Shown: positions 1,700 to 19,648 of the stretch, one piece after another
Layout of the letters: the number at the start of each line of letters is the position of its first letter
Position numbering within the stretch: position 1 is the stretch's first letter
Origin: an uncultured virus (IMG/VR IMGVR_UViG_3300033571_016245)
Taxonomy: Duplodnaviria; Heunggongvirae; Uroviricota; Caudoviricetes
Direction: 5' to 3' (one strand)
DNA length: 20,000 bases
IMG/VR virus record: IMGVR_UViG_3300033571_016245
Notes under the pieces: generated by a model
The model's database searches: none
What the model was told of the DNA's origin: nothing
What the model saw: the letters and a program-made list of their open reading frames with translations, nothing else
Program-made: the position numbers and the translations under genes

Positions 1700-2195
1700 G
1701 CACTCTTAGCGACTCAATATTTACAGGAGTATAGTTAATAGCTTCAACACTGACATTAATATATCGTTCATCAGCTAGCTTGCGCTGATGTATATGCCCA
1801 TGTACATTTTTGTGTGCTTTAATACCCAGTGAGCTTTCGTGTACAGGAACATGAGTTAGCAGCAGGCCAAATTCTGGAAACATCCGCCACATCATGATCT
1901 TACCAAAAGTACGCTGTAGATGCGGATCTTTGCCGTCATCATGATTGCCTAATATCAATCGCTTGCGCCCACGACAACGATTAAGCAGTTGGCCAAGTTC
2001 TTCAAAGTAAACATCGCCAAGATGATATACAATGTCGCCATCCTTAACGACACTGTTCCAACGTTCTATCATATGTTCATTCATTTCTTCAACACTAGAA
2101 AAATCAGGCCGTATTAGTTGGCCGTCATCACCTTTAAATGTAAGAACATTACGATGATTAAAGTGTGTGTCGCTTATAAGCCAAATATCACTCAT
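1695..2195 (-). CDS. Calcineurin-like metallophosphoesterase
   Basis: Motifs SDTHF, LGDV, GNHD, THVP, HGHIH. Start placed at MSDIW (ATG 2195), which overlaps the end of the upstream ORF. Confidence 0.92.
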   Translation of the reverse strand: MSDIWLISDTHFNHRNVLTFKGDDGQLIRPDFSSVEEMNEHMIERWNSVVKDGDIVYHLGDVYFEELGQLLNRCRGRKRLILGNHDDGKDPHLQRTFGKIMMWRMFPEFGLLLTHVPVHESSLGIKAHKNVHGHIHQRKLADERYINVSVEAINYTPVNIESLRVL

Positions 2196-2433
2196 TAAAT
2201 TCAAGCATAAACATAGTTGCTTCCTCTTCATTAACAAATTCTAATACAAAAATCCATTTATCGAGTTCAAAAGATTTATCGCGATGTATTGTTTTGATTG
2301 TATTGTGATTTTGTTTGTACCACTCGCACATTGCCTCTGTCCAATTTGGATAGCTTTCTCTTGATTTTAAGTCTGATAGGATTTGTCCGTTGCAAACTTT
2401 TGACAAAGTATCAATTCTAACGAATCTAGTCAT
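2188..2433 (-). CDS. Small hypothetical protein, divergent LRW-family member
   Basis: MCEWYKQN helix and C-terminal FVNEEEATMFMLEF; ATGA overlap with the upstream stop. Confidence 0.7.
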   Translation of the reverse strand: MTRFVRIDTLSKVCNGQILSDLKSRESYPNWTEAMCEWYKQNHNTIKTIHRDKSFELDKWIFVLEFVNEEEATMFMLEFNE

Positions 2434-2639
2434 GCCCACGTTAATAAAAACAAAGTTAGATCTTCATCACTCATAATAAATTTGATCTTTTGCCAACGAC
2501 CATCCGCATCAGTGATAACAGTTATGTCTAAGTATGATAACACAATTTCAGCTTCTTGTCTACTATTAACGAATCCATAATAGTCAAAAATATTTTTATG
2601 TAGTCTGCGCCAGGCGTTGCTATTAATTTCTAATTCCAT
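2430..2639 (-). CDS. Small hypothetical protein, LRW family
   Basis: Ends MSDEDLTLFLLTWA*. Confidence 0.75.
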   Translation of the reverse strand: MELEINSNAWRRLHKNIFDYYGFVNSRQEAEIVLSYLDITVITDADGRWQKIKFIMSDEDLTLFLLTWA

Positions 2640-2867
2640 TTAGTTGTCTTTTTTTATTTTTACTTCAGATTCAGTTTCAACCCAAACCTTAGCACCACAA
2701 CTCAGCGGTTTATCTGGACTGTATACTACTGTGCTGGGTCCCAGTATTTCAACTTCATGTGCGTAGGTATTGGTGCGACCCTGCTTGACTGTAATCACAG
2801 GTTCACGTTCACCTGTCTTGCTGTTGCGTTTAACAACATGTTGATTAACATGAATACGAGTTTTCAT
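2640..2867 (-). CDS. Conserved phage hypothetical protein (not LRW family)
   Basis: MKTRIHVNQH...PVITVK...YSPDKPLSCGAKVWVET resembles a widespread large-phage family of unknown function. Start coupled to the upstream AGGTGG. Confidence 0.8.
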   Translation of the reverse strand: MKTRIHVNQHVVKRNSKTGEREPVITVKQGRTNTYAHEVEILGPSTVVYSPDKPLSCGAKVWVETESEVKIKKDN

Positions 2868-3181
2868 TCTGACCACCTAAGCGCAAACAATGTAGCATCT
2901 TGTTGGCGTTTAAAATATATATTATAATCCGTTGCAAAATATTTGTCAATCATGTTTTCATCCAGCCATGCTTGAAGCGTAAGATCCCAAATTGGGACAG
3001 GAATTTTAGTCCAACCTTTACTTTCTAAGTCAGCACCTTTAATTTCATTTAAAATTTCTTTATCAACAGCCTCTTGAAGAAGCTTAGCCAGTTCGTCTGC
3101 TACATCATCTGGCATTAAATGTTTAATTGATTGAGCAACTTCCTTTGTGTATACGCTACTGAGTTTTGTTTTTTTCTTCAT
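2864..3181 (-). CDS. Small hypothetical protein, LRW family
   Basis: LQAWLDEN...IYFKRQQDATLFALRWSE*; ATG overlaps the upstream TGA. Confidence 0.8.
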   Translation of the reverse strand: MKKKTKLSSVYTKEVAQSIKHLMPDDVADELAKLLQEAVDKEILNEIKGADLESKGWTKIPVPIWDLTLQAWLDENMIDKYFATDYNIYFKRQQDATLFALRWSE

Positions 3182-3381
3182 GACCACCTCAGTGCAAACA
3201 TTATGTAGGTATCCATATCAGGACAAACTATGTACATTTCTTCCATTCGACAATCATTTTGCCAACACCATTCCACTAATTCATCATCGTGCTCTAAACG
3301 ATGTTCACTTAATAGTTCGTTTGTGGATCTATCCCAAAACCAATGTAGAATATGATGTTGAGATACCCATTTCTTCTTCAT
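3178..3381 (-). CDS. Small hypothetical protein, LRW family
   Basis: LVEWCWQN...CPDMDTYIMFALRWS*. Confidence 0.8.
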   Translation of the reverse strand: MKKKWVSQHHILHWFWDRSTNELLSEHRLEHDDELVEWCWQNDCRMEEMYIVCPDMDTYIMFALRWS

Positions 3382-3647
3382 CACTGTTTGACCATTAAAT
3401 CAAATACATCCAGTGCATAATCGTATTCATACTGAGTGCGACCTTTTACATAATACAATTCAACTCTGCTACGCACCCAATAATGACGCAACCAAATACG
3501 TTTAGTAGTTTTTGTTTGCCAGAATTTTATAGCGCCACTGGAAACAGATTCTTTTATATCTATCTGTTTTGGCAACCAAGCAAAACGCTGTTCCCAATTA
3601 CTCCAGTCACGTAGACTGTAAATTTTTGGCCCCGGATCTCTTACCAT
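3381..3647 (-). CDS. Phage hypothetical protein (WxxxFAWLP...IWL type; not LRW family)
   Basis: Trp-rich 88-aa ORF; TAATG overlap with the upstream LRWS stop. Confidence 0.7.
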   Translation of the reverse strand: MVRDPGPKIYSLRDWSNWEQRFAWLPKQIDIKESVSSGAIKFWQTKTTKRIWLRHYWVRSRVELYYVKGRTQYEYDYALDVFDLMVKQ

Positions 3648-3868
3648 TATGACCACCTCAGGATGAAATACAGCCTGTCCTCTTCGCGTGGTACTAGAAA
3701 CATATCGCCGCTGTTAACACCCAGTCTACTATTATCAAACCAAATAACGCCTGGAGTTTTTTTAATTTCCTCAGCGTTTTCCTGTGCCCACGTGTGATCC
3801 ATAACAATGCCTAATTCTGGTGTGCCTAGATCATCACAGAAATTGAACTTGTGTGTATGGTTATTCAT
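3647..3868 (-). CDS. Small hypothetical protein, LRW family
   Basis: Ends FLVPREEDRLYFILRWS*. Confidence 0.8.
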   Translation of the reverse strand: MNNHTHKFNFCDDLGTPELGIVMDHTWAQENAEEIKKTPGVIWFDNSRLGVNSGDMFLVPREEDRLYFILRWS

Positions 3869-4094
3869 TACTCCACCTTAGCACAAATAATAACATGTCT
3901 TCTTGTTTTGTAAAGAAGAAATTATCACCATGTAGATTACAGTACCAATTGTCGCGACTGTCTATACCAAAATTATCCAAGCACCAATTGCAGACTTTTT
4001 TGTGAAGTGTATCCCAGCGATCAATTTTGACTGTAGCAACATAATATTCTGGGAACACCTTACCTTCGGGCCATTTTTCAACTTTGGCTATCAT
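3861..4094 (-). CDS. Small hypothetical protein, LRW family
   Basis: VCNWCLDNFG...FFFTKQEDMLLFVLRWSNE*. Confidence 0.8.
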   Translation of the reverse strand: MIAKVEKWPEGKVFPEYYVATVKIDRWDTLHKKVCNWCLDNFGIDSRDNWYCNLHGDNFFFTKQEDMLLFVLRWSNE

Positions 4095-4360
4095 GACCAC
4101 CTCAAAGCAAAATAAGTAGCATCTTCTGGTTTTTCAAAATACCAATAGTGACCCATACATATATACTTTCCTGACAAATATTCTTCAGGCCAACTATTTG
4201 GAACTCGATCATAAAATTTACAAATTACCATAGTCCAGCCTTGATCTTCAGCTTCGATTATTTTCTTTGCCATAAAGTTCAATTGATGATTTCTAATGCG
4301 TTCATTTAGATCACTCATAGTTAAAGTATCAGCGCCTAAACTTTCCCAAAAATATTTCAC
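4091..4360 (-). CDS. Small hypothetical protein, LRW family (GTG start)
   Basis: Ends WYFEKPEDATYFALRWS*; GTG at 4360 overlaps the upstream TGA, behind GAGGTGG. Confidence 0.78.
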   Translation of the reverse strand: MKYFWESLGADTLTMSDLNERIRNHQLNFMAKKIIEAEDQGWTMVICKFYDRVPNSWPEEYLSGKYICMGHYWYFEKPEDATYFALRWS

Positions 4361-4599
4361 GACCACCTCAATGCAAACATCACAGCATCCTCTTGATCGC
4401 GGATAACAAATCGATAACTGTGGGATTCTTTTGGACCGCCCCAACCACACATCCACTTACCCTCTCGATTATATCTCATGTCGTAGCATGGACCCATCTC
4501 GGACTCACACCATTCCTTACGCTTACGAAAGAATGAGACTAGTCTTTCGTTTTCAGGTGCATGTATTGTGATCACATGCCAGCCTTTGGTAACAGTCAT
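4357..4599 (-). CDS. Small hypothetical protein, LRW family
   Basis: RKEWCESEMG...FVIRDQEDAVMFALRWS*. Confidence 0.8.
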   Translation of the reverse strand: MTVTKGWHVITIHAPENERLVSFFRKRKEWCESEMGPCYDMRYNREGKWMCGWGGPKESHSYRFVIRDQEDAVMFALRWS

Positions 4600-4808
4600 G
4601 CCCACCTCAATAAAAAGTAAATAAGATCTTCATCTTTAACAAAATCTATGTCCATGCTTCCAGCTTCGAGCGTGACATTGCTAGCATTGTATTCAGTCAT
4701 CAGCAAGCGACAGGCCGCAGTCCATATATCCTCGCCTGATTTTATTTCTACACTGATTATGAACTTCTCAAAAAAATTCGAAGTAACGACCTCGGCCGGT
4801 GATATCAT
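4596..4808 (-). CDS. Small hypothetical protein, LRW family; true start may be 4833 via a +1 frameshift
   Basis: Ends IDFVKDEDLIYFLLRWA*; see the finding on the T7 run at 4770-4776. Confidence 0.7.
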   Translation of the reverse strand: MISPAEVVTSNFFEKFIISVEIKSGEDIWTAACRLLMTEYNASNVTLEAGSMDIDFVKDEDLIYFLLRWA

Positions 4809-4813
4809 GATAG

Positions 4814-5008
4814 TTAACCCGTAACAGCGCCATTAGCCCACCTCAACACAAACAATAATTCATCTTCATCAGTTTTAAACCATATTTGTCCGTTACCCCA
4901 TTGATAGGTTATACCGCTATCACGCAACCAGTTTAAAATTTCTAAGCAGTTGTCTTTGTTAACAGTTAAAAAATAACTGCGTTTTTCGAATGGATTCTTA
5001 GTGATCAC
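4814..5008 (-). CDS. Small hypothetical protein, LRW family (GTG start)
   Basis: ILNWLRDS...IWFKTDEDELLFVLRWANGAVTG*. Confidence 0.8.
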   Translation of the reverse strand: MITKNPFEKRSYFLTVNKDNCLEILNWLRDSGITYQWGNGQIWFKTDEDELLFVLRWANGAVTG

Positions 5009-5193
5009 ACCCACCTCAACAAGAAGTATGCATAAGCACCGCGATTATTAAAAAAGATTGTTTCAAAACCATTATAGCCATAAGAATCAGGTATATGCTC
5101 CTCGCACCATGCAAGTATTTCTTTAAATGGTGCAGCACCATTATACTGCCAATCGTATAAGAAACCAGGGTGACAAGCTGCTTGTTTTGTCAT
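5005..5193 (-). CDS. Small hypothetical protein, LRW family
   Basis: ILAWCEEH...IFFNNRGAYAYFLLRWV*. Confidence 0.8.
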   Translation of the reverse strand: MTKQAACHPGFLYDWQYNGAAPFKEILAWCEEHIPDSYGYNGFETIFFNNRGAYAYFLLRWV

Positions 5194-5432
5194 GACCATC
5201 TCAATATAAAATAACTCAGTTGATCTTTATTGCGAAACTTAAATTCGTTATAGGCAGTGCGATGACCACATTCATTTTCTTCACACCATTTACCCATTTC
5301 ATCTAAGTAGTACCCTTCGCTCAAATCCGCAAAAGTATTGATCCAATGTTCATTATCTTCGTGTTTGATTTGAATTTTAATAGGGGTGTAACCTTCTTTG
5401 GTTACAACTTCTATTTTATAATCTTTAGGCAT
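5190..5432 (-). CDS. Small hypothetical protein, LRW family
   Basis: MGKWCEEN...FKFRNKDQLSYFILRWS*. Confidence 0.8.
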   Translation of the reverse strand: MPKDYKIEVVTKEGYTPIKIQIKHEDNEHWINTFADLSEGYYLDEMGKWCEENECGHRTAYNEFKFRNKDQLSYFILRWS

Positions 5433-5829
5433 TTGATAAAATTTCAGGCTTCGCTAACCACAGCATAGCTTCTTTAAAGCTATATGTTTGGGTTAACTCA
5501 ATAAACAAATTATTATTATTCTTTAACACCCACTTACGAAGTCTAGATAGATAATCAGTTGGATCGGTATTGTATATTGTTCGATCCCAATTAACATCTC
5601 CAAATGCACCGCTGTAATAATATTGTTTAAACTGTTTGAATGCACTGTCCTTCATTGTAGGAGTAGAATAACTCTGCGCCCAGTTTTCTTGAATTAACAT
5701 CAATGCGTATACTCGAGTCATTATAATACCTTGCCAATAAACAATGTCACTGCAAGTTTCTTCATCATAGCAATATATGGGAGTTGGACTTAGAATACTC
5801 CAAGCATAAACACTTTGTCTATCAAGCAT
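5425..5829 (-). CDS. Hypothetical protein
   Basis: 134-aa ORF overlapping both neighbours by 8 nt; no motif recognised. Confidence 0.65.
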   Translation of the reverse strand: MLDRQSVYAWSILSPTPIYCYDEETCSDIVYWQGIIMTRVYALMLIQENWAQSYSTPTMKDSAFKQFKQYYYSGAFGDVNWDRTIYNTDPTDYLSRLRKWVLKNNNNLFIELTQTYSFKEAMLWLAKPEILSNA

Positions 5830-6481
5830 AATGATCGGTCCCTGTTAAAGTCCAGTCGATGTTATCACTGTTACAAACTTGTTCAAAAGTATGATGTGCT
5901 GGTTGATATCCATAAGCCATATACTTGACCAAACGCTTGTGACTTTGTGGATTTACGTTATCAAACTTTAACAACTTGTATTTTTCATCACGAGCAAATG
6001 TACTGCGTACGACAACTCGATTACCGTCAAACCCAATCTTACATACAGTAATGTCAAAATCATCTAGTACTGCTTCTAGATTTGATTGAAAATTCTTTTT
6101 GATTAACTGTACATTCCATTTTTTATCTGTTTTTATATCTGTAACTCCATAAGTCAACGCATTATCACTAGTTGATTTAATGGCATAAGATGCTTGTTCT
6201 TTAAACATTGCACTATGTTCAAAATTATCTTTAAAAGATTCCATATGAAAGCGACTGTGAAAGTAAACATCAATGTCACTATCAACAGGACGATTTTGAT
6301 ACCATGCTAAACAAGCCCCTCCAGCAATATAAGGAGTATCTTTACTACAACCAAATATATTATCAACAATGGGACGATCTTCAGGATGAACAAATAGCCC
6401 ATTTACTTTTGGAGGTTTGGGGAAAACTCCAGTAATATCGTCACCAAAAATACTACTAAAAATGCCCGATAAGTTACCCAC
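5822..6481 (-). CDS. tRNA nucleotidyltransferase/poly(A) polymerase head-domain-like protein
   Basis: YIAGGAC...SDIDVYF, VQLI and DDFDITVCKIGFDG match class II NTase head motifs (GG, DxD, and a degenerate RRDFT-type motif); GTG start behind GAGGT. Confidence 0.72.
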   Translation of the reverse strand: MGNLSGIFSSIFGDDITGVFPKPPKVNGLFVHPEDRPIVDNIFGCSKDTPYIAGGACLAWYQNRPVDSDIDVYFHSRFHMESFKDNFEHSAMFKEQASYAIKSTSDNALTYGVTDIKTDKKWNVQLIKKNFQSNLEAVLDDFDITVCKIGFDGNRVVVRSTFARDEKYKLLKFDNVNPQSHKRLVKYMAYGYQPAHHTFEQVCNSDNIDWTLTGTDHYA

Positions 6482-7532: not shown

Positions 7533-7871
7533 TCACACGGGATGCCAAAACAAAGGTTCTTCGATACCTTCTGAGATCCACTTTAAACAGAATAACAGAC
7601 GATCTTCGTCTTTGTCAAAATAAAATGTGGCGCCTGATCTATAGTGTTGATTACAAACTTCGTTAATGTGATCTATTATAGATCTATTATCAACATTTTT
7701 AACTACAGGATCAACTGGTGGATCCCAATCAAATTGCCAACAATCCAAACCTACATTTTCATGTAACCATTCTATTACTTCTGTAGTTGGAAATTTACCT
7801 TTTTTACCATTTTGGTATTCAGTTACTTTGTTATCATAACCAACATAAACAGAGTAGGGTTTAAACTGCAT
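7533..7871 (-). CDS. Hypothetical protein, LRW family (outlier, LKW with C-terminal extension)
   Basis: VIEWLHENVG...FYFDKDEDRLLFCLKW. Start moved to ATG 7871, downstream of tRNA-Leu and preceded by AATAAATA. Confidence 0.72.
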   Translation of the reverse strand: MQFKPYSVYVGYDNKVTEYQNGKKGKFPTTEVIEWLHENVGLDCWQFDWDPPVDPVVKNVDNRSIIDHINEVCNQHYRSGATFYFDKDEDRLLFCLKWISEGIEEPLFWHPV

Positions 7872-7884
7872 ATGTCTATTTATT

Positions 7885-7967
7885 TGGTGGGCACGGTCGG
7901 GCTCGAACCGACAAGCCGAAGCGAGAGATTTTAAGTCTCTTGAGTTTACCAATTTCTCCACGTGCCC
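7885..7967 (-). tRNA. trnL: tRNA-Leu(TAA)
   Basis: Acceptor GGGCACG/CGTGCCC, anticodon arm AGAGA-CTTAAAA-TCTCT, long variable arm with TTCG, T arm GTCGG-TTCGAGC-CCGAC, encoded ACCA end. Confidence 0.95.
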
Positions 7968-12407: not shown

Positions 12408-12482
12408 TGGTAGTCGCGGTGTGACTCGAACACACACTAAGACCGTTATGAGCGGCCGGCTTCACCTTTAAGCTACGCGACT
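12408..12482 (-). tRNA. tRNA with CAT anticodon (Ile2 or elongator Met)
   Basis: Acceptor AGTCGCG/CGCGACT, anticodon arm GGCCG-CTCATAA-CGGTC, T arm GTGTG-TTCGAGT-CACAC, ACCA end. The paired 1-72 position and lack of the GGG/CCC anticodon stem argue against initiator tRNA. Confidence 0.9.
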
Positions 12483-12488
12483 ATTATA

Positions 12489-12580
12489 TGGTAGGGACGC
12501 TTGGGATCGAACCAAGTCAAGAACACCCATCTAGTGCTAAAGGGTTTATAAAACCCTCCCGTGTACCAACACCCGCCCCC
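12489..12580 (-). tRNA. Atypical 92-nt tRNA with TAT anticodon (nominally Ile), short D-loop and long variable arm
   Basis: Acceptor GGGGGCG/CGTCCCT, D arm GTGT-TGGT-ACAC, anticodon arm AGGGT-TTTATAA-ACCCT, variable hairpin AGCACT/GGTGTT, T arm CTTGG-TTCGATC-CCAAG, ACCA end. Confidence 0.8.
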
Positions 12581-12586
12581 GTGATA

Positions 12587-12796
12587 TTATTTAATGACCT
12601 CAAAATTCACGCGATATATCTGGTAAAGGTCCCCATCATCTATCTTTTGACGTCTCACATATTGCAACAATCCTTCTGCGTCTTTATCAGTACCATATTG
12701 GATCTCAGAATTATGAAACACATATATGCAGAGGTTGTTGGGATCGCTATCCTCCCATGGTCTACCAATTACAAAACTAAAGCGTTTTTCGCTCAT
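12587..12796 (-). CDS. Hypothetical protein
   Basis: ORF with ATGA overlap to the upstream gene (MSEKRFSF...). Confidence 0.65.
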   Translation of the reverse strand: MSEKRFSFVIGRPWEDSDPNNLCIYVFHNSEIQYGTDKDAEGLLQYVRRQKIDDGDLYQIYRVNFEVIK

Positions 12797-13074
12797 GCTT
12801 TGATACCATATGACCAAGCGAGATCTTTGTACTGTTCATAAGGATACTTTTCGCGCACCTTAGCACTAAGGCCCCAAGTTTGCTTCAATGCAGCAGCACC
12901 AGACTTTGCAAACACAGTATCCTCAATAGGATCCAAATACTGTTTGATATAAGGTCGAGCAACAACTGTATATGCTGTCTTACCTTTTGCTCGTTTATTA
13001 TAATCCTTTAGCCAACCAACTGAACCATTAGTCCAAACAGATTCAAGCTGTTCTTTGCTGGGAGGATGTGACAT
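12793..13074 (-). CDS. Hypothetical protein
   Basis: 93-aa ORF, translationally coupled at both ends. Confidence 0.7.
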   Translation of the reverse strand: MSHPPSKEQLESVWTNGSVGWLKDYNKRAKGKTAYTVVARPYIKQYLDPIEDTVFAKSGAAALKQTWGLSAKVREKYPYEQYKDLAWSYGIKA

Positions 13075-13511
13075 TACTTCTTATCCTTATCTTTCAATTC
13101 TGAACGGGGCCATGGTTCTTTTTGAGCAGGCTCTTCTAATGTATGTACAAACTCAACTTTACTAACAGTCGGTGTAGTATTTGTATCTGGTGTTCTTACT
13201 GCATTTAAATCTCTAGGTTGCACCAAAGTATCACTTGCAATAGCTCCAATTCTATTATCAGGACGCAATGTTCTGTGATAATTGAAACTTTCAGCTAGCA
13301 TTTTATACTGATGCTCGCGTTCTGCACGAAACCAACTATAAATTAAAATTAGCAAACTAGCCCAAAGAACTGCAATTACTGTTGCCATAAAATCATCGCG
13401 TAAAATATTCTTTGTTAATAGAAATTGCCCAATAGAACTACTAACACCAATACTAATAAAAAACAGTGTACGTGCTAGATGTTTAATATACAATTCACTG
13501 AAAATGTTCAT
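13074..13511 (-). CDS. Hypothetical membrane protein (2 TM segments)
   Basis: AGGAG SD before ATG 13511 (MNIFSELY); two hydrophobic helices followed by a polar tail. Confidence 0.7.
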   Translation of the reverse strand: MNIFSELYIKHLARTLFFISIGVSSSIGQFLLTKNILRDDFMATVIAVLWASLLILIYSWFRAEREHQYKMLAESFNYHRTLRPDNRIGAIASDTLVQPRDLNAVRTPDTNTTPTVSKVEFVHTLEEPAQKEPWPRSELKDKDKK

Positions 13512-13674
13512 TTGTTGCTCCTGTAGTTTGGGCACGGCAATTGGCTTCCAAAAGTTCTCGTTCAAGTTCTGAAATTCGCTGCTCATAATCATACTTCATT
13601 TGTTCATATTGCGCACGAAGAATGTCTAGTGTAGACTCTGTCTCAGCAGCTTTTGAAAGCCAATAACTGTCCAT
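13495..13674 (-). CDS. Small coiled-coil hypothetical protein
   Basis: MDSYWLSK...LRAQYEQMKYDYEQRISELERELLE heptad pattern. Confidence 0.6.
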   Translation of the reverse strand: MDSYWLSKAAETESTLDILRAQYEQMKYDYEQRISELERELLEANCRAQTTGATNEHFQ

Positions 13675-13675
13675 G

Positions 13676-13891
13676 TTAGTCGTTCCGTTCCATATCAGTG
13701 GCTTCACGAACAAGTGTAATTAGATCTTCAACTGTGGGACACATAATCTTAGCAGTTACCCATTCATTATCTGAATCGCGACCGCCAATTTCAAACATAA
13801 AACCATTATCATACATATTAATAGAAAAACTTTCGTTTACAGTAACCATCTTGTCACTGATCTTTGTAACTGACTTCTTTGATTTAGCCAT
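13676..13891 (-). CDS. Conserved phage hypothetical protein
   Basis: AGGAG SD and own promoter; NMYDNGFMFEIGGRD...W pattern. Confidence 0.75.
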   Translation of the reverse strand: MAKSKKSVTKISDKMVTVNESFSINMYDNGFMFEIGGRDSDNEWVTAKIMCPTVEDLITLVREATDMERND

Positions 13892-13910
13892 GTCCATCTC
13901 CTATTGTTTT

Positions 13911-13939
13911 ATAATATACTACTATTTTGGCACTGTCAA
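13911..13939 (-). promoter_or_regulatory. Sigma70-type promoter
   Basis: TTGACA-N17-TATTAT in the intergenic gap. Confidence 0.75.
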
Positions 13940-13942
13940 CTA

Positions 13943-14137
13943 TTAATGAATAGTACCTGATACTAGCTCAGTGATTTTTAAATCCAATTCTTCTGGGATA
14001 GCATTCATATCAGACATTGAGGAAATAGCTTCTAGAACAATTTCTTTAAGCTCATCAGGATCCATCTCAGGACCTTCCATGATAATTTCGTGCTCTTCAC
14101 CGGTATTTGGATCGATAAATTCAACTTTAATTTTCAT
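13943..14137 (-). CDS. Small acidic hypothetical protein
   Basis: Very Glu/Asp-rich 64-aa ORF with an AAGGT SD. Confidence 0.7.
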   Translation of the reverse strand: MKIKVEFIDPNTGEEHEIIMEGPEMDPDELKEIVLEAISSMSDMNAIPEELDLKITELVSGTIH

Positions 14138-14148
14138 TTTCAAAACCT

Positions 14149-14427
14149 TTATTCATGTTTCATATTTGCCCAAATTACCGAAGGCAAAAATTCACAGTGT
14201 AAATCTTCATTGTCTTCTTCGCCCCAAGCAATTACAACATCATTATCCATATTGGGTCCAAGAAAAATATGATGAAAAATTAATTCGCTTACCCGATCTA
14301 AACCCCATAGACTGCGTTCACAATCTTCAATTATTGCTTGTTCATAGTTGGGAATGTTTGGCACATCACTGTGCCAAACTATTTTTACTTCGTGCCAGTT
14401 TATCACTGGCTCTTGTTCGTCTATCAT
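14149..14427 (-). CDS. Acidic hypothetical protein
   Basis: 92-aa ORF with ATGA overlap to the RNA ligase stop. Confidence 0.65.
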   Translation of the reverse strand: MIDEQEPVINWHEVKIVWHSDVPNIPNYEQAIIEDCERSLWGLDRVSELIFHHIFLGPNMDNDVVIAWGEEDNEDLHCEFLPSVIWANMKHE

Positions 14428-15686
14428 GCGTCGGCCTCAAAGCGATAGTCCCACCGTGCATTGCCCCAGAGGTCACGCACTGAATCTATCTTAGTCTGAG
14501 TTCCAGTATTCTTCTTAATCTCGTTAATAACTAGTTCACGCGGATCCTTATCACCAAACCGAGCAAACACATAAGAAGGAGCAAATGGATCGTTGTCGCG
14601 GATAGTAGGCATCCACTCTAAGGCATAACGCTTACGATCTAATCCTGCTGCTAATACCATCTTAAAATACTTTTCGTACTTGTCAACGCTGTTAGCAACA
14701 CCTGACCAAAACTCAGTTTCAAAACGTTCAACACGCACACGATCTTCGTCCATCATGAAAGCCTTTGCGTCATCCATCTTCTCGTTTACCAGCAGATCAA
14801 TGACATTCTTTTCATGAGTGAGGTTGTCCTTGGTCTTGTGGATCCGCAGATACCACTCGCCCTTGACCTTGAGCATATGCCCATCATCAAACCGTATGAT
14901 CCAACCTTCAATGCCCTCTGCTGCCTTAGTTTCAGCCATGAGATGACTCATGTTGGCAGCAGTGCCCTCATAGGCCTTAACTACCTCGATGCTATACTTC
15001 TTGCCATATGCCTGCAACCAATCGTAATTTACATACGAGCCATTGCGGACATCACGAGCAGCAATAAGCACCAAACGATCAGTGGGATAGTCTACAACGA
15101 TACGCTGCTTACGACTGCACCATTCAAAGATAGGAGTTACACCAGCTTCGTCTATACACCAACGAGCAAAGGTATCATACTGTATGTTACGAGCAACATA
15201 CTCCTCAGCCTGCATAGACACATCAGTGATACCCATCTTGGTACCCCAACGTATGCCAGCATCAGTAACTACAGGAGTAATCATGCTGCCATCCAGCTTC
15301 TCAAGAATGACATGAGGCTGGAAGAAGTTGATAAGAGCAAACTGAGTCTCATCACGCTCGTTGATGTTGAAGAACTTGTGCAGGCGCCGAGCCATAATGG
15401 TACCGTCCTTGTAGAACAACATACCACGACATTCGCGACGGATAGCAGCCAAGTTTACTGCTTCTGGGCAACGCTGTGAGCTGCACCATTCAGTTTCGCA
15501 TATAGGCTTCTTGCAACCGGGACACCAATATTCCTCTTCTCGAATTGGAGGAAAAGTGTCAGTCATTGCTACCATGTAGTTGACTACATAGCCCCAATCA
15601 CGCTCAGCAATGATGAACTCGTCACGCCCTTCAATAGCAGGGCGCACATCATCCAAATGATTGATCACAGGAAATTGATAATTCAT
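14424..15686 (-). CDS. rnlA: RNA ligase 1 (T4 Rnl1/RnlA family)
   Basis: RECRG, KFFN, motif I EKLDGS, TPIFEW, motif IV EGWII, motif V LKVKGEWY; AAGGAG SD. Confidence 0.93.
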   Translation of the reverse strand: MNYQFPVINHLDDVRPAIEGRDEFIIAERDWGYVVNYMVAMTDTFPPIREEEYWCPGCKKPICETEWCSSQRCPEAVNLAAIRRECRGMLFYKDGTIMARRLHKFFNINERDETQFALINFFQPHVILEKLDGSMITPVVTDAGIRWGTKMGITDVSMQAEEYVARNIQYDTFARWCIDEAGVTPIFEWCSRKQRIVVDYPTDRLVLIAARDVRNGSYVNYDWLQAYGKKYSIEVVKAYEGTAANMSHLMAETKAAEGIEGWIIRFDDGHMLKVKGEWYLRIHKTKDNLTHEKNVIDLLVNEKMDDAKAFMMDEDRVRVERFETEFWSGVANSVDKYEKYFKMVLAAGLDRKRYALEWMPTIRDNDPFAPSYVFARFGDKDPRELVINEIKKNTGTQTKIDSVRDLWGNARWDYRFEADA

Positions 15687-15733: not shown

Positions 15734-16131
15734 CTGAAACTGATTCCTACACCAGGTGACTTCTTTACATCCTCACCTGTTTTAAGAATGTGCAGTAGTC
15801 GATCATGCTCTTGCTTTTCGCGAGCCTTTTCTAACTTCACAATATACTTCTGCTCTGCCTTCTTAATGTCCGCAGGACTTTTGTTTAGCAATATACTGTG
15901 ATACTGACTACTGCGAATCCATCCACTAAGAAACGCCAAACACTCTTCTACTGAGCCACCAAAGATAGCAGTGCTTCGAGTGTAGACTGGCAATTGATCA
16001 CCATCAGCTACTACATTGATATAAACGCTAGCATTGTCACTGAAGTCGTGTGGACTACGTCCAACCTCGAAGCCAAGGCTTTTACAGGTCTCATCCAAAA
16101 ATTTAACACGCTCGTAGTCTCGGTACTTCAT
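15730..16131 (-). CDS. Hypothetical protein
   Basis: 133-aa ORF with ATGA overlap; no motif recognised. Confidence 0.7.
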   Translation of the reverse strand: MKYRDYERVKFLDETCKSLGFEVGRSPHDFSDNASVYINVVADGDQLPVYTRSTAIFGGSVEECLAFLSGWIRSSQYHSILLNKSPADIKKAEQKYIVKLEKAREKQEHDRLLHILKTGEDVKKSPGVGISFS

Positions 16132-16466
16132 TGTCCTGTCCTGTAATTATGCAACCAATGCGTCATATAGTTACGGATATTGTTAGCACCAACTGGATTC
16201 ATGCTGTGAACATAAAAATCAAAGTTGGCTGGTAGTGTTATATTGCGCTCACTTACATAAGTTGTCAACCACTTGGCAAAAGTATATCCAGTCTTTTCAC
16301 CGTCACCAATAATATAATGATCAGCAGCCAAATCGTGATCAAAACTAATAAAAAAAGGCACTCCATGGTTTTTAATATACCAAACAGCATCATCCATATT
16401 ACGAGCAATGATCCAATCGCTGGTAGCAGGAAAACGAATGTCGTCTAAGAATAGCTTATAAGTCAT
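16128..16466 (-). CDS. Cyclic-phosphate-processing receiver-like domain protein (cREC)
   Basis: LFLDDIR-P, ISFDHDL, TGYxFAKWL and VHSMNPVGA motifs. Confidence 0.82.
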   Translation of the reverse strand: MTYKLFLDDIRFPATSDWIIARNMDDAVWYIKNHGVPFFISFDHDLAADHYIIGDGEKTGYTFAKWLTTYVSERNITLPANFDFYVHSMNPVGANNIRNYMTHWLHNYRTGQ

Positions 16467-16750
16467 TCGCTTGTTTCTCTTTCCATGATAAAAATCAATC
16501 TATCCTCTTCATTGAGGAACTTGTATAGGATGCCGTACTGAGTCTTATATTTGCGACCGCTTAAAGCTGTATTTGTTGCCCATTGTCGTTCGATGACAAC
16601 AGGGATTTTATTTTTTAGAAGATCTAACTTTTTATAAACGTGTGGTAAATCTTCGTAATGTGGCAATTGTCTGTCCTTATAGTGAAACAGAATCCAATAA
16701 GGCCATTTTGATTTGGGCTTGTTGATTACTTTCATATCTCCGGGAGACAT
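16463..16750 (-). CDS. Hypothetical protein, distant LRW-family member
   Basis: Ends YKFLNEEDRLIFIMERETSE*. Confidence 0.6.
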   Translation of the reverse strand: MSPGDMKVINKPKSKWPYWILFHYKDRQLPHYEDLPHVYKKLDLLKNKIPVVIERQWATNTALSGRKYKTQYGILYKFLNEEDRLIFIMERETSE

Positions 16751-17199
16751 TAGAAATCTCCCGGAGCAACCTGCAGAACTCGAATACCCTGTGCGCGGAT
16801 AGCGTCAACAACCTGCTGACGGTCGTCAACCCACAGATATGGGTTGCCATAATCCTTACGGATCTGCTCCAGCAGCTCAACCTTTACGATTGAGTCCTTG
16901 CGATTATCCCGCTCTGCTCTCATGTACAGAGCATTATAGAAGATATTATGCTTCTCCAGCCAAGCTTCAGTAGCTTCCCGCAGTTTGCTGTCACGACCAC
17001 TACACAGAATAATACGGGTCACAGGGTTGTCAGCAAAGTTTTGCAGCATCCAAACAATTTCCTCGTTGGGAGTATCGTTTGGCAGGCCAGCGTCCCAAGC
17101 AGCCCAGTTCTTAGGCTTGCTTGCGACCCAGTGCCTTCGATGATTGACATTACAGATTGTGCCGTCCAGGTCGAATACAATTACCTTGCCTGTAAACAT
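16750..17199 (-). CDS. HAD-family polynucleotide 3'-phosphatase (PseT phosphatase domain, stand-alone)
   Basis: FDLDGT, CSGR, LYMRAERDNRKDSIVK, VDDRQQVV and LQVAPGDF; no P-loop kinase domain. Confidence 0.88.
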   Translation of the reverse strand: MFTGKVIVFDLDGTICNVNHRRHWVASKPKNWAAWDAGLPNDTPNEEIVWMLQNFADNPVTRIILCSGRDSKLREATEAWLEKHNIFYNALYMRAERDNRKDSIVKVELLEQIRKDYGNPYLWVDDRQQVVDAIRAQGIRVLQVAPGDF

Positions 17200-17210
17200 T
17201 ATAGTCCCCG

Positions 17211-17717
17211 CTATTCATCTTCGTCATTGATCCAGCTGCTGATATCAAAAATATCTTCTAGTTCATCTGGAATTTCATCTTCGCCTACTTCAAAATATTC
17301 ATCATCGCCATCTTCGTAGATGCCGCAGAACATCATACCCGGTTCAAAATAATAAGCCTTAACCTGCCAACCCATTTCTTCTAGCTTGGTATAAAAAGTA
17401 ATAGGTGGAGACCAAGCAGTATCGAAAACCAAAGTAATGCTGCCTTCAGACTGATCAGCAATGGCTCCATCGCCGCTGTTAGCGTCCCACTTGGTTCCCC
17501 AATTAGCTACACTCCAGTCATACCAATTGTCTGCTCCATATTTCTCAACAAGCACGGGATTAGGCTTATCATTAGGACTAGAAGTGCCCTTAAGTTCTTC
17601 AGGCATAGGCACTAAGGTATGAAAGAATTCATCCTTGTTAAAACCTTCCTCTGCTTTAGCAATCATTGCGGGATCAGCATGACGCAAGGTAACATGATTA
17701 GCACACCAATTTGGCAT
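17211..17717 (-). CDS. DUF1281/YubB ferredoxin-like domain protein
   Basis: MPNWCAN, WYDWSVANWGTKWD, FDTAWSPP and YFEPGMMFCG. Confidence 0.8.
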   Translation of the reverse strand: MPNWCANHVTLRHADPAMIAKAEEGFNKDEFFHTLVPMPEELKGTSSPNDKPNPVLVEKYGADNWYDWSVANWGTKWDANSGDGAIADQSEGSITLVFDTAWSPPITFYTKLEEMGWQVKAYYFEPGMMFCGIYEDGDDEYFEVGEDEIPDELEDIFDISSWINDEDE

Positions 17718-17721
17718 TGTA

Positions 17722-17928
17722 TTACTCCTTTGTTACAAGACGGAAGTTAAAGAAGAGGCCTACTGCAATCACAGCAAAGTAAGTCTCCAACGTGTATGGA
17801 ATACCAAGATGGAACAGAGTGTTCAGCCCCCAAATGGTAATGAACGGTCCAAAGATTACCATCGCAACAAAAGCGAGTACACCAACAGCACCAACAGCAC
17901 CCAGCATACCAAAGAGCACGTTCTTCAT
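17722..17928 (-). CDS. Small membrane protein
   Basis: 68 aa, strongly hydrophobic; GGAGG SD. Confidence 0.75.
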   Translation of the reverse strand: MKNVLFGMLGAVGAVGVLAFVAMVIFGPFITIWGLNTLFHLGIPYTLETYFAVIAVGLFFNFRLVTKE

Positions 17929-17929
17929 G

Positions 17930-18346
17930 TTAAGCCTCCACGTTCATATCATTAAGATTAATATGGATACCATCATAATCCCAGCAACGCCACATATCAT
18001 TAATCCATAAGTAGACGTAGTCTGCACAATGGTCGCCAGCAGCATTGCTAATGTAATCATCGTAGCTGGCATAGCAAGTGGCGTTTTGATCAGGCTCATC
18101 TCTATCGCGACCATAAGCAAGACACCAGTTACGGTCAGTAGGCTGGTCAAAATCCTGCTGCTCGCCAATCTCTTTACCAAGGTAGCTAAGGTTACCTAAA
18201 GCCATCAAATGGTCGATGAGGTAAGCATCGTTCCAATACTTAACAAGCAAGCGACCGTTGTTGTCAGGGTAGCCGTCCCAGTGACAATAGATTGCAGTAA
18301 CTGAGCCGTCGTCTTCTACAATACCAATCATGCTGCGAGTACCCAT
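17930..18346 (-). CDS. Conserved phage hypothetical protein
   Basis: MGTRSMIG...IYCHWDGYP...AYGRDR...DYVYLW; AAGGAG SD. Confidence 0.8.
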   Translation of the reverse strand: MGTRSMIGIVEDDGSVTAIYCHWDGYPDNNGRLLVKYWNDAYLIDHLMALGNLSYLGKEIGEQQDFDQPTDRNWCLAYGRDRDEPDQNATCYASYDDYISNAAGDHCADYVYLWINDMWRCWDYDGIHINLNDMNVEA

Positions 18347-18357
18347 TGTAGTTCTCC

Positions 18358-18624
18358 TTAAGCTGCTTCAAGCATGTTAGCAGGCACTCGCCACATTGTC
18401 ATGCCTTCTTTAACCTTAACATTCTTCTGCATGATCTTCATTACAGTACCGCGTACTTCGCGTCCGCGAGCTACAAACTTCACAGTATCACCAGGATTAA
18501 AAGAATACTTGTTCTTCTTACCCAGCTGAGTACGGGCATACTTGATAGCCATTGACATGCTATCTAACTGCTCGTTAGTCCACTTGCCCCACATAATAGC
18601 TTGGTTGATTTCATTGATGTTCAT
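18358..18624 (-). CDS. Hypothetical protein with C-terminal SH3/KOW-like beta barrel
   Basis: FNPGDTVKF...GTVMKI...VKV...WRVPANML; AGGAG SD. Confidence 0.7.
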   Translation of the reverse strand: MNINEINQAIMWGKWTNEQLDSMSMAIKYARTQLGKKNKYSFNPGDTVKFVARGREVRGTVMKIMQKNVKVKEGMTMWRVPANMLEAA

Positions 18625-18643
18625 GTCAAGCTCCTATATATTG

Positions 18644-18671
18644 AGTGTAACATAAAGAGGGAGGCTGTCAA
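18644..18671 (-). promoter_or_regulatory. Sigma70-type promoter with extended -10
   Basis: TTGACA-N16-TACACT with TGn before the -10. Confidence 0.65.
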
Positions 18672-18684
18672 CCTCCCTTTTTTT
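18653..18684. terminator. Likely bidirectional intrinsic terminator overlapping a promoter -35 box
   Basis: Inverted repeat AGGGAGG...CCTCCCT with a T8 run on the plus strand and TCTTT on the minus strand, immediately after the stop at 18684. Confidence 0.65.
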
Positions 18685-19142
18685 TAGAACGTGCGAATTG
18701 CACGAAGACGGTCAGTAACCTTACGCATGGTCTCGAGATTCTTAGACTTGATCTTAGCAATCTCTTCCATGCTCTTAGTTGTAGGAGCACCGTTCTTAGC
18801 AACTACAAGACCAACTTCTTCGATAATTTCAGCAGCAGGCACTTCCTTGGTCTTCTTAACTTTAGCAGGAGCCTTGGTCTTGACAACCTTCAGCTTGGGA
18901 GCAGGCTTGGACTTAGCAGTCTTAGCAGGCTTGCTACCCTTGCTCTCACTATAGCCCGAACGCACAAGATGAGCAAAAGCTTCCTCCTTGGTCATGGGCT
19001 TGCTAAGAGCAAACAGATCAATATCGGTATGTCCGGAACGCTCGAGCACCTTAGCACGAGCAACAGGCGTACCGTTGGCAACACGAAACTTAACAACACC
19101 CTCAAGCGTCGAAACGCCAGCAACAGTAAAGGTCTTAGACAT
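18684..19142 (-). CDS. Basic Lys/Ala/Pro-rich phage protein, possibly DNA-binding
   Basis: Globular N-terminal domain (FTVAGVS...FRVANG...GHTDIDL...MTKEEA) followed by a KPAK-type linker; GGAG SD before ATG 19142. Confidence 0.75.
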   Translation of the reverse strand: MSKTFTVAGVSTLEGVVKFRVANGTPVARAKVLERSGHTDIDLFALSKPMTKEEAFAHLVRSGYSESKGSKPAKTAKSKPAPKLKVVKTKAPAKVKKTKEVPAAEIIEEVGLVVAKNGAPTTKSMEEIAKIKSKNLETMRKVTDRLRAIRTF

Positions 19143-19200
19143 GCTTGACTCCATTTTTTGAGCGGGGCAACAGCACCCCAGTCCTCATTCCCTATAATAC

Positions 19201-19228
19201 ATAATAGCATGGGGCGGCATAGCGTCAA
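19201..19228 (-). promoter_or_regulatory. Sigma70-type promoter with extended -10
   Basis: TTGACG-N16-TATTAT, with TGC before the -10. Confidence 0.72.
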
Positions 19229-19265
19229 CCAGAAAAGATAGCCAAAAACCCCAAAAATCCAACTT

Positions 19266-19287
19266 TTTTGTTACAATTTTAGTTACA
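19266..19287. repeat. 22-bp operator-like box (copy 1)
   Basis: TTTTGTTACAATTTTAGTTACA, closely matching the copies at 19605-19648. Confidence 0.7.
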
Positions 19288-19348
19288 AAAAACTCTAGCA
19301 AAATCAGTAGGTTACATATAGCAGTTAAGTTGTTGAAATTATTAAATT

Positions 19349-19528
19349 TTAAGCGTAACGACGAGCTTTACGACCATAATTGGGCTTACCAGCATGGCGA
19401 CTAGCTAAGGTCAATCCCTTGCGCTTTGAACGCTTTTCAACACGAGTAACAGCGTTAGCCTTAAGGAATTCAACGACTAACGCTTCAATTTCGGCATTTT
19501 GGGACTTAGCAGTAGTAAAAAGCGACAT
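19349..19528 (-). CDS. Small basic hypothetical protein
   Basis: TAAGGAG SD before MSLFTT...; EALVVEFLK helix and Arg/Lys-rich tail. Confidence 0.75.
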   Translation of the reverse strand: MSLFTTAKSQNAEIEALVVEFLKANAVTRVEKRSKRKGLTLASRHAGKPNYGRKARRYA

Positions 19529-19569
19529 TTTACGCTCCTTAGCAACGGGCCTCATTGCCCTATATACAC

Positions 19570-19597
19570 ATAATAAGCTCAAACAGGGATACGTCAA
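19570..19597 (-). promoter_or_regulatory. Sigma70-type promoter
   Basis: TTGACG-N16-TATTAT. Confidence 0.72.
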
Positions 19598-19604
19598 CCA
19601 GAAT

Positions 19605-19648
19605 TTTTGTAACATTTTCAGTTACATTTTGTAACAATTTCAGTTACT
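19605..19648. repeat. Tandem 2 x 22-bp operator-like boxes with internal dyad TGTAAC-N7-GTTAC(A)
   Basis: TTTTGTAACATTTTCAGTTACA followed directly by TTTTGTAACAATTTCAGTTACT (20/22 identical). Confidence 0.8.

Follow-up and report, generated by a model that had tools for sequence, protein, structure and literature searches.

Introduction

Unmodified-type UAU anticodons that serve AUA codons, combined with A73 and without lysidine, are known from the tRNA-Ile(UAU) of Mycoplasma mobile and from the B. subtilis G34U suppressor, and the gene described below likewise has these features (PMC3575796, PMC3919564; here and throughout, PMC identifiers refer to excerpts of the papers). Both are class I tRNAs, the UAU loop of which is read by an Arg-type IleRS (PMC3575796). 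E. coli IleRS charges a UAU tRNA at 1.1% relative kcat/Km, and Trp905Arg rescues this defect; the unmodified U34 also misreads AUG on E. coli ribosomes (PMC3575796), such misreading being weak in B. subtilis (PMC3919564). The C29-G41 pair is a determinant for E. coli IleRS, and t6A37 is reported to be a strong determinant for bacterial IleRS (PMC9976931). In the S. aureus IleRS complex, A35 and G34 are read, positions 32 and 33 are exposed, and U36 is turned inward toward position 33 (PMC11685878, PMC13752280); the bacterial enzyme makes no base contact with positions 32, 33 and 36 (PMC11685878).

Several other described tRNAs share structural traits with the present gene. The allo-tRNAs, including their (8/4) UAU group, have in common with it a long extra arm, UAU, a small D-loop and a mobile or phage origin (PMC5389517, PMC7609411). 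Analogously, tRNA-Pyl and mammalian mt-tRNA-Ser(UCN) possess a single connector base, a small D-loop and a lengthened anticodon stem (PMC7609411), and the nematode nev-tRNA-Ile(UAU), in the excerpts available, combines UAU with a long arm. Engineered tRNAs with a pseudo-anticodon variable arm demonstrate that a second arm is compatible with translation and can raise charging (Mukai 2020; PMC7590224). Here we describe a phage tRNA gene in which a UAU arm is followed by a second arm of the anticodon type with GAU at the centre of its loop.

Results

A tRNA gene with two anticodon arms

The gene occupies positions 12489..12580 of the window, i.e., the whole 20,000-nucleotide stretch of DNA analysed, which belongs to a large phage encoding an Rnl1 RNA ligase, a PNK phosphatase, a carbamoyltransferase, a 2OG oxygenase and a nucleotidyltransferase. 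It lies on the minus strand, a point absent from the first-pass annotation of this DNA, and is transcribed from 12580 to 12489. ARAGORN, suggested there as an isotype check, calls it tRNA-Ile(tat); Rfam RF00005 misses it, yet detects both ordinary tRNAs of the window.

The predicted fold of the minus strand is a cloverleaf, its minimum free energy and centroid structures being identical. The 5' strand of the 7-bp acceptor stem (12574..12580) takes part in the pairs G1-U72, G4-C69 and G5-U68 and is without the C4-G69 Ile element. A single G connects it to a 4-bp D stem with the 4-nt loop UGGU (12561..12573), which keeps G18 and G19; U8, A14, R15 and A21 are absent from the D region. The first anticodon-type arm (arm 1, the proposed decoding arm; 12539..12559) has a 7-bp stem, consisting of five pairs extended by two G-U pairs, and the loop UUUAUAA, in which UAU (12548-12550, minus strand) is accompanied by U33, A37 and A38. 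Arm 2 (12522..12538), the proposed synthetase handle, has a 5-bp stem and the 7-nt loop UAGAUGG; it carries GAU at 12529-12531 (minus strand), A33 and a C29-G41 pair formed by 12536 with 12524. Five unpaired nucleotides (12517..12521), equal in number to a class I variable loop (44-48), separate arm 2 from a canonical T arm with a 5-bp stem (12500..12516). The 3' strand of the acceptor stem, discriminator A73 and the encoded CCA complete the molecule (12489..12499).

This fold agrees with the first-pass annotation in its 92-nt length, encoded CCA, 7/5 branch, acceptor G-U pairs including 1-72, single nucleotide before the D stem, UGGU D-loop and anticodon stem extendable by G-U pairs. The extra hairpin reported there also exists, but a 5-bp stem closing a 7-nt loop describes it better than the 6-bp variable hairpin given there, and its resemblance to an anticodon arm with a central GAU had been overlooked. 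Thus, the gene combines UAU in a 7-nt loop, U33, a purine at position 37 and A73, as does canonical tRNA-Ile(UAU), and departs from the latter in its length of 92 nt and its second arm, in place of a short variable loop and a single anticodon arm.

Taken alone, the window sequence is no more stable than expected by chance (z -1.44; 15 of 200 shuffles are equally stable). The evidence for the fold is comparative. Across 49 distinct relatives with the same 92-nt layout, 25 of the 28 pairs show changes in both partners, and pairing is kept in 99.3% of cells, a level matched by none of 500 shuffles. Because of this covariation the gene is not a pseudogene, an outcome that had been named earlier as the one to check in homologues.

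Two-way coupling of UAU and GAU

Viral contigs were scanned for UAU tRNAs whose variable region is long, leaving the content of this region free, yielding at least 120 loci and at least 94 distinct sequences. Six ill-formed sequences were dropped; in 82 of the 89 well-formed ones, the window included, the best extra hairpin had a 7-nt loop centred on GAU (among the matches listed). Excluding the window, GAU stood 14–16 nt before G53 in 80 of 88 long UAU tRNAs among the matches listed, vs. a mean of 4.8 and a maximum of 14 in 1000 shuffled sets; the anticodon-to-G53 distance of an ordinary tRNA is 16 nt. In the opposite direction, a scan for a CAGAU loop close to a T arm, with nothing required upstream, returned at least 116 distinct sequences, 104 of them well formed. 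All 99 of the well-formed sequences of 88 nt or more, among the matches listed, contained an upstream UAU loop. The two motifs are therefore coupled in both directions. As a control, long-arm CAU tRNAs carry GAU at that place in 5 of 82 cases. These 82 well-formed distinct sequences, from phage tRNA(CAU) genes (L550-L669), often have GNRA-type loops; their long variable arm is notable in itself, as Met, fMet and Ile2 tRNAs normally belong to class I.

A third scan, of GTDB genomes, used a pattern requiring GAU and gave 100 well-formed sequences out of at least 113 distinct ones, a sample biased by the required CCA; the 80 titles among the matches listed are mainly from Acidobacteriota and Pseudomonadota. 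Pooling gave at least 264 distinct sequences, with 127 representatives at <85% similarity, 124 of which have a parsed D arm; one sequence is from an unpublished genome (G009), and none of the conclusions depends on it by itself. The 60 loci scanned include many tRNA arrays as well as solitary genes, and a considerable part of them was either not detected or named wrongly by ARAGORN. Cultured phages with a two-arm tRNA comprise Phosso, PhiM1, qsb1, S-SRM01 and Thalassa, the hosts being Sinorhizobium, Pectobacterium, Acinetobacter, Synechococcus and Vibrio. BLAST with the window gene itself retrieved only T-arm fragments, in 7 cultured-phage records, and no plasmid match to one tRNA-array member was found. 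In 401 sampled Bacillota genomes, 45 pattern matches in 40 genomes were mostly chance, with a few short UAU tRNAs and one of the sister type described below; this pattern overlooked a known GAU-arm copy in genome G039 and hence is weakly informative.

When the UAU hairpin is treated as a gap, seven members line up position by position with the tRNA-Ile(GAU) of phage Thalassa. The simplest history would be insertion of a UAU hairpin, after the D arm, into a tRNA-Ile(GAU).

Some long UAU tRNAs have a different extra arm. A sister group of at least 33 sequences (viral contigs L737-L854; G039:C89) has A73 and is without GAU; its extra hairpin reads CU-N-R-C-AA, a consensus partly set by the search pattern. 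A Val anticodon in this arm was considered and rejected, position 35 being A in 20 and G in 13 of the 33. Four further long UAU tRNAs (L018, L117, L096, L008) lack both a GAU in its usual position and an N-R-C loop in the extra arm, and two of the four show CAU there.

Division of labour between the arms

The loop of arm 1 resembles that of a decoding anticodon. Position 37 is a purine in all 264 sequences and position 38 varies freely (A 205, C 36, U 22, G 1), both among the matches listed, in a set for which U33 was fixed by the parser and two of the three scans required A37 and A38. The number of bases from the D stem to the UAU loop is 8, 7 and 6 for D-loops of 4, 5–6 and 7 or more nt, respectively, a length compensation with rho -0.72 over the 124 representatives (among the matches listed). 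According to a rule attributed to Steinberg and Cedergren, lost tertiary layers are offset so as to keep the elbow-to-anticodon length, and the lengthening of the arm 1 stem fits compensation of this kind. Such compensation would account for the odd D-loop and the long stem of the window tRNA as an adjustment of one subtype, i.e., the compact-D-arm subtype.

Arm 2 is different. In the unbiased set, among the matches listed, its position 33 is A in 76 of 82 sequences and U in 2, and its position 37 is U in 46, G in 20, A in 13 and C in 3. Judged by their bases, these positions appear poorly suited to decoding. The exposure of positions 32 and 33 in the IleRS complex suggests that A33 should be tolerated by the synthetase. 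A non-U33 loop is not by itself proof of non-decoding, because 23 of 52 ordinary-length tRNA-Ile(GAU) sequences in phages and arrays have C33 instead of U33, some with U37. These C33 tRNAs (e.g., L702:18824-18899, L703:11953-12028 and Acidobacteriota arrays) possibly reflect nuclease evasion. An A33-U37 pair within the GAU loop was also considered and dropped, since it can form in only 130 of 264 sequences (among the matches listed) and shows no clear covariation.

The C29-G41 pair segregates with GAU. Among the matches listed, it is found on arm 2 in 104 of the 124 representatives and 61 of the 82 unbiased sequences, and on arm 1 in 17 and 6, respectively (counts uncorrected for shared ancestry). 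For comparison, it occurs in 131 of 1158 background tRNAs, 40 of 52 Ile-GAU tRNAs and 49 of 101 short UAU tRNAs. The pair is rarer on the UAU arm of two-arm tRNAs than in short UAU tRNAs (17/124 vs. 32/69, p 2e-6, again uncorrected).

Geometry of arm 2

For IleRS to reach arm 2, this arm must move under the D stem. In members with a canonical D arm whose arm 2 has three or fewer pairs of its own, a strand swap creating pairs 26:44, 27:43 and 28:42 is possible in 14 of 15, vs. 7 of 53 (uncorrected for shared ancestry), at a cost of about 4 kcal/mol; 1.93 vs. 1.52 pairs were obtained in a permutation test (0/2000). The swapped folds of the compact subtype, to which the window tRNA belongs, cost 7.7–10.7 kcal/mol, and the best swap register of this subtype pairs in 97.4% of cells with no compensatory change. 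Restacking of the arms without re-pairing may also be possible.

ATA codons, neighbouring genes and hosts

The first-pass annotation had raised recoding of AUA as one option. In 22 ATA columns of two window proteins, aligned with 119 and 25 homologues, the residues are Ile (0.39), Val (0.32), Leu (0.09) and Met (0.03), Ser and Ala lying outside the top seven; the Ile/Val shares in the same alignments are 0.59/0.18 for ATT and 0.68/0.09 for ATC. These alignments give no indication that ATA is reassigned to Ser, Leu or Met, which argues against recoding. Reading of AUA as Val was examined separately in 36 RNA ligases and is not supported, the Val share being 0.19 at ATA vs. 0.16–0.17 at ATT and ATC. 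ATA makes up 113 of the 420 Ile codons (27%) in 47 window ORFs. Two ATA-free blocks, 16463-19615 (0 of 52 Ile codons) and 12793-14143 (0 of 30), may mark early or highly expressed genes. In a crude comparison, the ATA share around carriers was 0.27, vs. 0.27 and 0.24 in controls. A promoter scan stayed at chance level (10 vs. 8.1).

Six nucleotides downstream of the two-arm tRNA, on the same strand, lies a tRNA(CAU) gene (12408..12482) called Met by ARAGORN. It is probably a lysidine-type Ile2 rather than Met, because it has C4-G69, U12-A23 and C29-G41 (features from PMC1635315, PMC9976931). If so, the two-arm tRNA would be the second AUA reader of this phage. Several related phage loci also have an Ile2-like CAU gene beside the two-arm tRNA. 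In large arrays, i.e., loci with 8 or more tRNAs, a single CAU gene predominates (36 of 54), and this gene is often fMet-like. Thalassa has the two-arm tRNA together with two CAU genes resembling fMet and Met; in its relative S124, three CAU genes are present and no gene is annotated UAU in the stretch examined (one phage pair). Overall, the picture with respect to mutual exclusion of the two-arm tRNA and Ile2(CAU) is mixed.

The T4 Rnl1-type RNA ligase (14424..15686, minus strand) and the PNK phosphatase (16750-17199) form a tRNA-repair pair, which is context to the two-arm tRNA only. A likely tRNA/RNA repair set of the window includes a nucleotidyltransferase-like gene (5822-6481), the Rnl1 gene and a cREC receiver domain with the PNK phosphatase (16128-17199). 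ARAGORN further finds a tRNA-Leu(UAA) at 7885-7967; a 142-codon ORF (7533-7961) starts within this tRNA gene, and its true start is probably further down. Region 2188-5432 holds about 14 small ORFs, many ending in F-x-L-R-W-S/A, that constitute a repeated paralogous family.

With regard to the hosts, the 30 best loci from 40 carrier genomes encode IleRS of the Trp type in 26 cases and the Tyr type in one, three being without the zinc motif, and no Arg/Lys-type enzyme was found among them. This test is weak because bacteria with tilS normally have a Trp-type IleRS. An explanation by loss of tilS was rejected, as the gene is kept in 4 of 5 carrier genomes. Thus, carriers are not characterized by absence of tilS or by an Arg/Lys-type IleRS. 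BLAST with a short UAU tRNA did not separate the hosts.

Discussion

The arrangement of conserved elements suggests that decoding and identity are split between the two anticodon arms of one Ile tRNA. On the ribosome, the UAU arm would stack under the D stem and read AUA without lysidine. For charging, the host IleRS, poor on U34, would instead read the GAU arm through G34, A35 and C29-G41, together with A73. Before charging, arm 2 would probably take the position of arm 1 under the D stem, either by restacking or through a short strand swap, and A33 with a mostly non-A residue at position 37 would stop the GAU arm from decoding. If the gene is expressed and charged in this way, the phage would gain an AUA reader with no TilS requirement. 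We regard this reading, in which UAU decodes AUA and GAU recruits host IleRS, as somewhat better than evenly supported by the sequence patterns; of the roles proposed in the first-pass annotation, TilS-independent AUA decoding is the one with the best support.

Certain observations weigh against it. t6A37 is a reported determinant for IleRS, yet A37 is seen in arm 2 of only 13 of 82 unbiased sequences among the matches listed. The window copy has G37 and G38 in arm 2 and is without the C4-G69 and U12-A23 Ile elements. The sister long UAU tRNAs, at least 33 in number, carry an extra hairpin without GAU. Short UAU tRNAs are common in phages and half of them lack C29-G41; therefore, a second arm is not the sole solution.

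An unlikely alternative is that the molecule is an AUA-reading Ile tRNA charged via its UAU arm, in the manner of Mycoplasma mobile, and that the GAU arm is a protective decoy or inhibitor which binds a nuclease, toxin or modifying enzyme. Presence of tRNA-repair genes in the phage fits this alternative, as does the sister group with its extra arm without GAU; the non-canonical residues 33 and 37 could give an uncleavable mimic, and redundancy with tilS and the probable Ile2 suggests a backup role. Charging through arm 1, however, does not agree with the scarcity of C29-G41 on the UAU arm compared with short UAU tRNAs, nor with the freedom of position 38 in the UAU loop. Moreover, the fixed 14–16 nt spacing and the class I variable loop fit docking of a whole tRNA, and the two-arm tRNA is found within 6 kb of only 3 of 57 RNA-ligase loci.

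The purpose of the molecule might also lie outside translation, as an uncharged mimic (a regulator, a sensor decoy or an integration site), or it might be a precursor from which one arm is excised. We consider this quite improbable. Watson-Crick pairing of acceptor positions 2-71, 3-70 and 4-69 holds in all 264 sequences among the matches listed, with many compensatory changes, and a decoding-type UAU loop with length compensation is hard to reconcile with a non-translating RNA. A two-arm tRNA is, in addition, the sole tRNA of one 44-kb phage, and a 4-nt D-loop occurs in none of 99 short UAU tRNAs. What speaks for a mimic or precursor is the RNA ligase nearby and the precedent of the Lactobacillus plantarum UAU tRNA, which is reportedly uncharged.

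Decoding by both arms, with one conformer reading AUA and a second one reading AUU/AUC, is very unlikely: arm 2 has canonical spacing, the swap can complete it in one subtype and C33 exists in ordinary phage Ile-GAU tRNAs, but its position 37 is a pyrimidine in 49 of 82 and its position 33 is A in nearly all (among the matches listed), a separate Ile(GAU) gene is kept in many arrays, and the length compensation follows arm 1. Equally improbable is the non-Ile synthetase proposed in the first-pass annotation, i.e., a class II-like tRNA charged by an anticodon-blind LeuRS or SerRS so that AUA is mistranslated or recoded, since this would leave the invariant GAU and C29-G41 unexplained, the orientation of the extra arm is unlike that of Ser and Leu tRNAs (mode of 5 unpaired bases after it, 115/212, vs. 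1 in Ser, 52/66, and 2 in Leu, 39/61), the window copy is without U8 and A14, and ATA columns are rich in Ile and Val, even though a long extra arm with A73 is compatible with LeuRS in canonical-D subtypes and UAU allo-tRNAs and nematode nev-tRNAs exist.

If the split of decoding and identity is correct, it would account for TilS-independent reading of AUA by phages in hosts with an IleRS that rejects U34, and the family would be a natural exception to the principle that one anticodon serves both ribosome and synthetase. Whether it forms a natural class of switchable tRNAs, the synthetase reading one anticodon and the ribosome the other, with identity uncoupled from the codon even though the synthetase is one that ordinarily inspects the anticodon, is in our opinion evenly balanced. 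In such a class, changing arm 1 would direct Ile to any codon while the host IleRS stays unmodified, making the two-arm tRNA a ready scaffold for genetic code engineering. The family is widespread but has been annotated as plain tRNA-Ile or overlooked. We found no natural tRNA with a second anticodon arm in the full-text papers searched, which come mostly from outside the subscription journals; the supplements of PMC5389517 and PMC3575796 may list members, and the excerpt of PMC5377504 names only "a single tRNA-Ile".

Comparison with known tRNAs

The architecture falls outside every tRNA class tested, while the job, UAU reading AUA as Ile, is already known. Unlike the Mycoplasma mobile type, the family bears GAU and C29-G41 on an additional arm and occurs together with Trp-type IleRS and tilS. 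Allo-tRNAs have an 8/4 or 9/3 branch, whereas the window tRNA is 7/5 with compensatory changes. They mostly carry G73 or U73 (PMC5389517), and their Ser/Ala identity finds no counterpart in the two-arm family, which has A73 in 82 of 82 unbiased members (among the matches listed) and G3-U70 in none of 264; these counts also argue against the non-Ile synthetase. The invariant GAU on the extra arm, followed by about 5 unpaired bases, is a further difference from allo-tRNAs. Analogously, in class II tRNAs (Ser, Leu, Tyr) the variable arm has a free loop and is followed by 1–3 unpaired bases, in contrast to the conserved GAU and the mode of five in two-arm tRNAs.

The compact D arm links the window tRNA to tRNA-Pyl and mt-tRNA-Ser(UCN), but these have 6-bp stems and 3-nt variable loops, compared with 7 bp and a whole second arm here (PMC7609411). 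Of the tRNA-Pyl features, the 1-nt connector, small D-loop and long stem are present, and the 3-nt variable loop, CUA and G73 are not; moreover, the compact D arm is confined to one subtype of the two-arm family, unlike in tRNA-Pyl. The nematode nev-tRNA-Ile(UAU) is eukaryotic, has a leucine-type variable arm and is charged with Leu in vitro, and the excerpts available mention no GAU arm. The nearest precedent is the engineered pseudo-anticodon arm of Mukai 2020. Those tRNAs are synthetic, had a modest effect and relied on HisRS fused to an extra anticodon-binding domain, with no UAU, GAU or IleRS in the paper (PMC7590224); the two-arm family carries both anticodons on one natural tRNA.
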